From IMG/VR virus record IMGVR_UViG_3300050336_000035, positions 32,001 to 96,000 of that record: a DNA stretch of 64,000 nucleotides; one strand, 5' to 3'. Positions 39,276 through 39,954 of this stretch are shown here, one piece after another; position 1 is the stretch's first letter; every line of letters begins with the position of its first letter. Position numbers and translations under genes: made by a program. Origin of the DNA: a virus (Duplodnaviria; Caudoviricetes). Under the pieces are notes generated by a model, which made no database searches, was not told the origin of the DNA, and saw only the letters and a list, made by a program, of their open reading frames with translations.

Positions 39276-39365
39276 AAAGTAAATAAAATGTATTTTCTAT
39301 TGTTAATAATTTATTGGATATTAAAATAATATCTATTGACAATACTAAAATAATATGTTAATATA

Positions 39366-39467: not shown

Positions 39468-39541
39468 GGGGAAGTAGTTTAATTGGGAGATGCGTGGCTA
39501 AAAGCTAGGTGGTATTGGTTCAAGTCCAGTCTTCCCCACCA
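39468..39541 (+). tRNA. Atypical tRNA, anticodon loop CTAAAAG (AAA)
   Basis: GGGGAAG/CTTCCCC acceptor, TTCAAGT T-loop, encoded CCA; imperfect anticodon stem. Confidence 0.6.
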
Positions 39542-39543
39542 AA

Positions 39544-39620
39544 TGATTGAGAGGATAGGAGATGAGGGTTCGAATCCCTTCTGATGTAGTTCAAAGGTAA
39601 AATACTTATCTAATCAATCA
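39544..39620 (+). ncRNA. Permuted tRNA mimic (YrlA/Y RNA-like)
   Basis: T arm GAGGG-TTCGAAT-CCCTT precedes the D-arm-like TAGTTCAAAGGTAAAAT; ends pair as TGATTGA/TCAATCA. Confidence 0.65.
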
Positions 39621-39626
39621 AATTAT

Positions 39627-39701
39627 AGGAAAGTAACACAATGGATAGTGTGTACGGCTTTGAACCGTAATATGAAGTTTCGATTACTTCCTTTCCTGCC
39701 A
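39627..39701 (+). tRNA. tRNA-Gln (UUG)
   Basis: Full cloverleaf; TACGG-CTTTGAA-CCGTA; encoded CCA. Confidence 0.9.
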
Positions 39702-39702
39702 A

Positions 39703-39954
39703 ATATTTATACTTTAGTGGTGGAATAGACATAATAAATAGGAATGTTTGTATATGGTAAAATCTATAGTTCCGCAATCGGAGCTTGGATAATAGTAGAC
39801 ATTATCGTGTGAATTAGTATGTCAGGACTTAAAATCCAATGGCATACTATAGTAATAGGAGCATCATGGAGAGAACCATGTTTTAACAAAAACTCGTTAG
39901 GTTGAGAGCTTGGCAACCATGTAAGGTGCAAATCCTTACCTAAAGTATAAATAT
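39703..39954 (+). ncRNA. Expanded tRNA-Leu(UAA)-like RNA (~250 nt)
   Basis: 15-bp terminal stem; TGGTGGAATAG D-loop-like start; GGACTTAAAATCC; GTAAGG-TGCAAAT-CCTTAC T arm. Confidence 0.6.

Follow-up and report, generated by a model that had tools for sequence, protein, structure and literature searches.

The 64,000-nucleotide stretch of phage DNA analysed here (the window) carries a structured RNA gene of 237 bases at positions 39711-39947, and this RNA belongs to a large phage family of which no trace was found in Rfam or the literature searched. The best explanation for the RNA, to which we assign a joint probability of roughly 0.6, is that it is an expanded, non-decoding descendant of a tRNA-Leu(UAA) that undergoes tRNA-like processing and serves as a mimic or scaffold. 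The window comprises bases 32001-96000 of a complete phage genome (167,493 bp, direct terminal repeats, ~26% G+C), in which the element occurs as a single copy. That phages make stable tRNA-like RNAs is an observation going back to the T4 and T5 era, and the window helps to show that one kind of phage tRNA-like RNA forms a very large conserved family present in both cultured phages and metagenomes. Its own copy adds a conserved, covarying D-loop module, a tie between the family and genuine tRNA-Leu(UAA) genes that have the same odd T loop, and what appears to be an intermediate form in which the anticodon loop is still displayed.

A first-pass annotation of the sequence had proposed that positions 39703-39954 encode an inflated tRNA-Leu(UAA)-like RNA with its tRNA landmarks in the correct order, and all of these were located where it had placed them. 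This included the D-arm motifs TGGTGGAATAG (39718-39728) and GTAGACA (39795-39801), the anticodon-like motif GGACTTAAAATCC (39825-39837) and the T arm (39921-39939). The reported 15-bp acceptor-like stem and the lack of an encoded CCA were equally apparent, with 39703-39717 forming 15 perfect pairs with 39940-39954 and the discriminator A39947 being followed by TAAAT. The inner 7 bp of this closing stem (39711-39717/39940-39946) correspond to the acceptor as defined by the family. Based on sequence and fold, the outer 8 bp are an extension in which a 5' leader strand (39703-39710, plus strand, as are all features of the element) pairs with the 3' trailer (39947-39954), lengthening the acceptor helix from 7 to 15 bp. 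A leader-trailer extension of at least 7 bp was present in only 4/110 family members.

The fold of 39703-39954 had a predicted free energy of -68.8 kcal/mol (z = -4.4 versus dinucleotide shuffles) and 0/200 shuffles were as stable. When only the family acceptor, D and T stems were imposed on the window RNA, the constrained fold (-67.3 kcal/mol) lay 1.5 kcal/mol above the free minimum and recovered both D-loop hairpins. Four of the five inserted hairpins listed by the first-pass annotation (GTTCCG/CGGAGC, AGTATGTCA/TGGCATACT, CATGG/CCATG and GGTTG/CAACC) were present in this fold. The fifth, GATAAT/ATTATC, probably does not form: it and the conserved D stem are competing structures, and relatives lack it.

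The order of parts along the RNA was as follows. The acceptor 5' strand (39711-39717), U8 and G9 (39718-39719) and the D-stem 5' strand GUG (39720-39722) were delimited by two alignments (A1 and A2, below) and by a partial match to a model (R1, below). The expanded D loop (39723-39799) then reads GAAUAGA (39723-39729), hairpin 1 (39730-39756), the linker GUAAA (39757-39761) within the conserved UGGUAAAA motif, hairpin 2 (39762-39790) and AAUAGUAGA (39791-39799), after which the D-stem 3' strand CAU (39800-39802) pairs with 39720-39722. This D stem has U11:A24 in place of C11:G24, a covarying alternative known from other family members. A cargo region unique to the source phage follows (39803-39918), delimited by the fold and by the identity of a 13-mer to anticodon arms of real tRNA-Leu(UAA). 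It comprises an anticodon-like arm (39815-39849; 10 + 3 bp with an AA bulge; loop CUUAAAA at 39828-39834, UAA at 39830-39832) and, in the constrained fold, a 5-bp hairpin (39865-39880) and a variable-arm-like 5-bp hairpin (39900-39918) that ends just 5' of the T arm, a class II-like position. The cargo fold, anticodon-like arm included, is predicted from one sequence and has no comparative support. Finally, an AU linker and the T arm (39919-39939; 6-bp stem GUAAGG/CCUUAC, loop UGCAAAU), recognised by identity to the family consensus and by R1, lead into the acceptor 3' strand (39940-39946), the discriminator and the trailer strand of the extended stem, which together occupy 39940-39954.

No Rfam family, including RF00005, matched 39703-39954 even at E values up to 10, and ARAGORN made no call on the element with or without its intron mode, also at a lowered threshold. 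The element was rejected as a tRNA-Leu(UAA) carrying a group I intron, as the anticodon loop is uninterrupted and the inserts are hairpins of 27-77 nt. No intron or ribozyme family matched in the region; the insertions correspond to no known intron type, in line with the earlier view that they look too short for group I/II introns. A tmRNA was likewise rejected, there being no ARAGORN or RF00023 call on the element, while the same tool detected a true tmRNA in Enterococcus phage EFDG1.

The element lies in a small tRNA cluster. ARAGORN found only two tRNA genes in the whole genome, both with an encoded CCA: tRNA-Phe(AAA) (39468-39541; RF00005, 44.6 bits) and tRNA-Gln(UUG) (39627-39701; RF00005, 63.5 bits), both on the plus strand. 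A single base separates the end of tRNA-Gln from the start of the extended stem at 39703. Upstream of the cluster is a candidate promoter-like site (39336-39364, plus strand; TTGACA, a 17-nt spacer and a TG-extended TAATAT), which matched 10/12 positions in a consensus scan. No terminator-like site was found 3' of the element, where small ORFs continue on the same strand. The anticodon of the tRNA-Phe is AAA (loop CUAAAAG) where GAA is usual, and its anticodon stem has one mismatch; an unmodified A34 is unusual in a Phe tRNA. The spacer between the two tRNA genes (39544-39620) holds a canonical T arm (GAGGGTTCGAATCCCTTC) in a non-tRNA context, where the Rfam YrlA score was only 15 bits.

In the window, the element is flanked by genes for a VG64/RDF-like protein, a lambda-type Ser/Thr phosphatase and two proteins that belong to no family; none of these could be linked to RNA, and a search of the neighbourhood revealed no partner protein. 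A side observation at L213:869-1807 concerned the only distant relative of the 212-aa protein encoded downstream: a Thg1-like gene (Pfam PF04446) lies ~2.3 kb upstream there. Thg1-family enzymes act on tRNA 5' ends.

Relatives were not recovered by similarity or synteny. Neither the element nor the surrounding 20 kb had a BLAST match among 50,697 phage records. The upstream VG64/RDF-like protein led to 80 related loci, with the element near none of them, and it was also absent from the whole records of five large relatives; the downstream 212-aa protein had only two homologues, in unrelated contexts. Exact scans for the anticodon arm alone, for the D motifs plus anticodon and for the anticodon plus T loop were empty, as was an exact metagenome scan for the D-loop module plus anticodon. 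BLAST and nhmmer searches of the window cargo against all fetched loci found no homologue, and the longest complement of the cargo in the phage genome was 13 nt, within shuffle expectation for an antisense target.

The T arm, on the other hand, was widespread. A scan with its 15-mer core matched at least 120 viral contigs, and among the matches listed there were 77 cases in the same frame, defined by a complementary acceptor and a leucine-type D arm. Almost all T-arm matches comprised AUG followed by a 6-bp T stem with the loop UGCAAAU. After the T stem comes a 7-nt strand whose complement lies 50-400 nt upstream, directly 5' of U-G and a leucine-type D arm. In a BLAST search with the T-arm region, 111 cultured-phage records carried the motif, nearly all of them unannotated at the match, and carriers included phages of Enterococcus, Listeria, Lactobacillus, Leuconostoc, Escherichia and others. 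Family members of 97, 99 and 205 nt were found in Leuconostoc phage LN34, Listeria phage LP-HM00113468 and Enterococcus phage EFDG1, respectively, the last directly 3' of the phage tmRNA. Rfam searches of three cultured-phage members and 15 loci with the D-loop module gave no match at the elements. Full-text literature searches, including one with the T-loop motif, found no description of the family, an absence that does not amount to proof.

Members share a 7-bp acceptor, U8-G9, a leucine-type D arm, a 6-bp T stem, the invariant loop UGCAAAU and the lack of an encoded CCA, with a lineage-specific variable cargo in place of the anticodon and variable arms. From the T-arm matches listed, 75 distinct members were extracted under the rule that at least 6/7 acceptor pairs form. 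In an alignment of 25 short members (A1), the acceptor, D and T stems were 98% paired compared to 34-43% when partner columns were slid, a figure to which the acceptor contributes partly by construction given the extraction rule. Changes on both sides were observed in 11/16 pairs. The two outer T-stem pairs and the D-stem pairs, neither of which was selected by the extraction, covaried.

A model built from A1 (R1), when run over the 64-kb window and the whole 167-kb genome, matched only at the element. It gave two partial matches (39846-39947, 42.4 bits, E = 2.6e-8; 39711-39771, 19.7 bits), since the model cannot span the inserts. A degenerate second 5' frame at 39846-39864 in the best of these alignments was too weak to claim. 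The window RNA showed every feature of the frame. Positions 39918-39939 (AUG and T arm) are the commonest T arm of the family, 39711-39717 and 39940-39946 pair perfectly on either side of U8-G9 and the T stem with no CCA encoded, and the leucine-type D arm GGYGGAAUAGGUAGACRY is present as two halves (39720-39728 and 39795-39802) split by the D-loop module. This D arm is near-invariant in the family (A14, A15, G18G19). The discriminator is A in 59% of members and the next position U in 49%. Members as a whole obey no common rule of aminoacylation or recognition.

The D-loop insertion proved to be a conserved module and is not private to this RNA. Four members retrieved through the T arm alone share the D-loop module of the window, which reads GGAAUAG, ACA, a hairpin, UGGUAAAA, a second hairpin, AAUAG and UAGAC. 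A scan with this pattern returned 17 viral contigs and 23 GTDB contigs, all 23 being metagenome-assembled genomes of Clostridia or Bacilli, and with the window included the module is conserved in 39 distinct sequences. In an alignment of the window and 34 others (A2, 35 sequences), 94.5% of cells in hairpin 1, hairpin 2 and the D stem were paired compared to 23-44% when slid. Two-sided changes were seen in 15 of 20 pairs, the hairpins accounting for 14, and no shuffle reached the observed values; in this alignment the invariance of the motifs follows partly from the search pattern, but the covariation of the hairpins does not. Most members have a tandem A-A mismatch between covarying pairs of hairpin 2. 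The window, which carries the pattern GGAAUAG|ACA ... AAUAG|UAGAC, belongs to this newly delimited subclass, its hairpin 2 and flanks being the most divergent in A2. In the subclass the D loop is split after G18 by the module and the G18G19 region is rearranged. The first-pass annotation had called for an Rfam scan, a homologue search and a covariation analysis, and had named a match to a known Rfam family or a lack of conserved structure in homologues as grounds for abandoning its proposal; neither was found, and the homologues show conserved, covarying structure.

Cargo was highly variable. Its length between the D stem and the T arm ranged from 8 to several hundred nt, and most family members had no anticodon arm. 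Several classes of cargo were seen repeatedly, joined to differing D-module variants, which agrees with cargo exchange. At the lower extreme, a 61-nt member (L137:5678-5738) consists of acceptor, leucine-type D arm, 8 nt and T arm, in effect a cargo-free chassis. In another (L171:4903-5104, minus strand), the cargo encloses a complete tRNA-Lys(UUU) called by ARAGORN. The commonest cargo class of the D-module subclass (L111, L187, L220, L221, L229, L235, L243, L248 and L250) combines a T-loop-like GGTGCAGAAT with a D-arm-like GTGGCGGAGATATCC after it, so that the frame encloses a second tRNA-like module whose parts stand in permuted order. In a further subclass member (L225:4448-4630, minus strand), the cargo terminates with a 6-bp hairpin; its loop, CUUUAAA, resembles an anticodon loop, one that would read the stop codon UAA.

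Several lines of evidence point to the origin of the frame. Genuine tRNA-Leu genes from EFDG1, T5 and T4 received R1 scores of 18-28 bits and T5 RNA1 (below) was also detected, so the frame is leucine-tRNA-like. Of the four copies of the 13-mer GGACTTAAAATCC in 2.3 Mb of fetched phage loci, the three outside the window each belong to the anticodon arm of a genuine tRNA-Leu(UAA). A scan for CUUAAAA at a tRNA-like distance from a UGCAAAU T loop revealed ARAGORN-called tRNA-Leu(UAA) genes with the UGCAAAU loop, which have a normal 5-bp T stem and, in one case, an encoded CCA. The window RNA is co-linear with these class II genes (L374:10179-10262; L286:2055-2138), sharing the acceptor, U8-G9, leucine D arm, CUUAAAA, a variable-arm-like hairpin, the T loop and A73. 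In addition, CUUAAAA occurred in the cargo of 9 members compared to 1.2 expected, in at least four unrelated cargo types. From the existence of such genes, their co-linearity, the shared 13-mer and the CUUAAAA enrichment, the family most likely descends from a phage tRNA-Leu(UAA) with a UGCAAAU T loop, these tRNA genes representing the probable ancestor. The window copy would then be a form in which, unusually, the Leu(UAA) anticodon loop has stayed intact, but is carried by a 13-bp bulged arm.

In comparison to tRNA-Leu(UAA), the window RNA differs by ~150 extra nucleotides, a split D loop, the 13-bp bulged anticodon arm and a 6-bp T stem. The loop CUUAAAA is canonical, whereas in place of a canonical 5-bp anticodon stem there are 3 bp, an AA bulge and 10 bp. 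The acceptor/T helix is 7/6 bp (13 bp) versus 7/5 in true tRNAs, and neither an RF00005 score nor a tRNA-finder call supports a canonical decoding tRNA. Taken together, the bulged arm, the 7/6 helix, more than 150 extra nucleotides, the rejection by tRNA models and the conserved D-loop module indicate that the window RNA probably cannot decode.

Among the closest known systems was RNA1 of phage T5 (AY543070, L257:3502-3645, minus strand), annotated as a misc_RNA, 'tRNA-like stable RNA with unknown functions'. It too lies in a phage tRNA cluster and combines an acceptor and T arm with a leucine-type D arm, the anticodon region being replaced by an insert that is not tRNA-like, and its R1 score (25 bits) is like those of true tRNA-Leu genes. 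However, its T loop (UUCAACU) is ordinary, and it lacks both the D-loop module and an anticodon-like arm. Judged by these features, T5 RNA1 is the same kind of RNA, placed outside the UGCAAAU family. The earlier proposal of an undescribed tRNA-derived ncRNA therefore holds only in part: the RNA is non-canonical, most likely derived from tRNA-Leu and without an Rfam match, but it is not isolated, having a large family and an analogue in T5 RNA1, and its suggested use as an anticodon-nuclease decoy is speculative.

Other known RNAs resemble the element in part. The species 1 and 2 stable RNAs of T4 (rnaC and rnaD; L214:4909-5172, minus strand) are non-decoding, lie at the end of a phage tRNA cluster and have a tRNA-like 3' T arm and acceptor. 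However, they have an ordinary T loop, no leucine-type D arm and no significant R1 match, and were rejected as family members since the frame is not shared. YrlA-type Y RNAs (RF02553) also mimic tRNA for non-decoding use and often lie beside phage tRNA genes, but they have a permuted topology and a Ro60/Rsr partner. This identity was rejected, with no RF02553 match on 39703-39954 and neither a TROVE-like family nor a Ro60-like gene seen among the seven flanking proteins examined. In plant mitochondrial t-elements, the tRNA-like/miRNA transcripts of murine gammaherpesvirus-68 and engineered tRNA scaffolds, a tRNA-like fold recruits processing enzymes or protects attached RNA. None of these has any sequence relationship to the family, and all lack the leucine-type elbow, the UGCAAAU loop and the D-loop module.

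In the explanation that we favour, transcription starting at the promoter-like site at 39336 would probably cover tRNA-Phe, tRNA-Gln and the element together, and the tRNA-like upper body of the element would probably be recognised by host RNase P, RNase Z and the CCA-adding enzyme. The RNA would then persist as a stable tRNA mimic outside translation. The working part shared by the family would be the conserved upper body, acting either as a processing/stability scaffold or as bait for a factor that binds this part of a tRNA. In the source phage, the anticodon-loop mimic could act as a second bait for a reader of the tRNA-Leu(UAA) anticodon loop. The majority of members without an anticodon arm, and the one that is almost cargo-free, suggest that the upper body, not the anticodon mimic, is the shared functional part. 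The case for tRNA-like processing is weakened for the window copy by its 8-bp leader-trailer extension, which could get in the way of RNase P and RNase Z and may change how or whether they cut it. The failure to find a partner protein nearby and the variable discriminator likewise count against this explanation.

Foremost among the rival explanations, and in our estimate an unlikely one, is that the element is a punctuation or stability element, providing an RNase P/RNase Z site or a structured 5' end by which parts of a polycistronic transcript are separated and stabilised, as in plant mitochondrial t-elements, with the cargo and its anticodon-like arm as evolutionary baggage. Genomic context, obtained by clustering ORFs within 3 kb of 109 members and naming the commonest clusters, gives this some appeal. 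Small phages have the RNA within a late operon, on its coding strand, often downstream of a transcription activator and upstream of HNH endonuclease and small and large terminase genes, and nine D-module members lie between minor head protein and scaffold genes. The near cargo-free 61-nt member, and the same-strand ORFs that follow the window element with no intervening terminator, point the same way. Late-operon context thus fits a processing or stability role but leaves the conserved elbow unexplained by that role. RNase P and RNase Z need only an acceptor/T-arm minihelix, so punctuation does not account for the near-invariant leucine-type D arm, the UGCAAAU loop, the D-loop module or the shuffled cargo classes.

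A role purely as bait, in which members are 'upper-half tRNA' decoys that soak up or mislead a host factor attacking or sensing tRNA, appears rather doubtful. Candidate targets would be an abortive-infection toxin directed at the acceptor end or T arm, or a tRNA-sensing immune trigger, and G55 together with the 13-bp helix would make the upper body unfit for translation. The anticodon loop of the source phage, as its second bait, would be aimed at an anticodon-loop nuclease or modifier.

The prospect that the RNA is a leucine-charged carrier acting off the ribosome is poor. Here LeuRS would charge the chassis for use of leucine in a non-ribosomal reaction, while the 13-bp acceptor/T helix and G55 would keep the RNA off EF-Tu. 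E. coli LeuRS identity resides in A73 and tertiary structure, not in the anticodon or variable arm, and the near-invariant D arm with A14, A15 and G18G19, along with A73 in the window copy and 59% of members, would suit such charging. Against it, A73 is absent from 41% of members, the G18G19 region is rearranged in the very subclass to which the window belongs, and no aminoacyl-transferase gene was found nearby.

It is very improbable that the element is a functional tRNA-Leu(UAA) supplying the commonest leucine codon of the phage, whether with its expansions in place or once the hairpins have been removed. Codon use argues for it and speaks against the non-decoding reading: UUA makes up 59% of Leu codons in the phage, and the neighbouring tRNA-Phe and tRNA-Gln read its dominant codons UUU (90% of Phe) and CAA (79% of Gln), so that the cluster has the look of a real tRNA supply. 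Decoding is also favoured by the discriminator A73, by real tRNA-Leu(UAA) genes that have the same T loop, and by the CUUAAAA loop, which together with its GGA/UCC closing pairs is exactly that of such genes. However, no tRNA caller or model accepts the element, and with three anticodon-stem pairs, a bulge and 13 bp in all the anticodon would sit too far from the elbow, on an RNA whose acceptor/T helix is also 13 bp. Nor does any ribozyme or intron model offer a route to excision; we know of no way in which bacteria remove tRNA inserts that do not self-splice, and the conservation of the D-loop module as structure is unexpected for a discarded intron. A functionless tRNA pseudogene or chance motifs in AT-rich DNA, for which the single copy, unique cargo and very AT-rich context might be cited, is scarcely credible given frame motifs identical to a family with covarying helices, stability far above that of shuffles and a position abutting a tRNA gene in a cluster with a promoter-like site.

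The favoured explanation, a tRNA-derived mimic or scaffold, bears on the old question of what role non-decoding tRNA look-alikes play in phages, and a natural tRNA scaffold with exchangeable cargo is of interest to RNA engineers. The family offers testable handles in the form of defined ends, defined helices and cultivable phages that carry relatives.

Several members lay close to other structured RNAs. Within L224:251-1280, one with the D-loop module and a 7-bp leader-trailer extension was located ~260 nt upstream of a ROOL RNA (RF03087, 318 bits). In Enterococcus phage EFDG1 (KP339049, L216:1976-2530), a tmRNA (RF00023, 140.6 bits) occurs in an unannotated stretch, directly followed by the 205-nt member, under which there is no GenBank feature. 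In Listeria phage LP-HM00113468 (MT500540, L217:1861-2177), the member at 1938-2036 follows a leader matching positions 80-157 of Rfam rliG. Identity of the family with rliG was rejected: the late region of phage A118 holds a full, different rliG (with an rli62-like stretch) that lacks the frame. The same Listeria phage locus also contains an mcrA RNA motif at 2127-2177.
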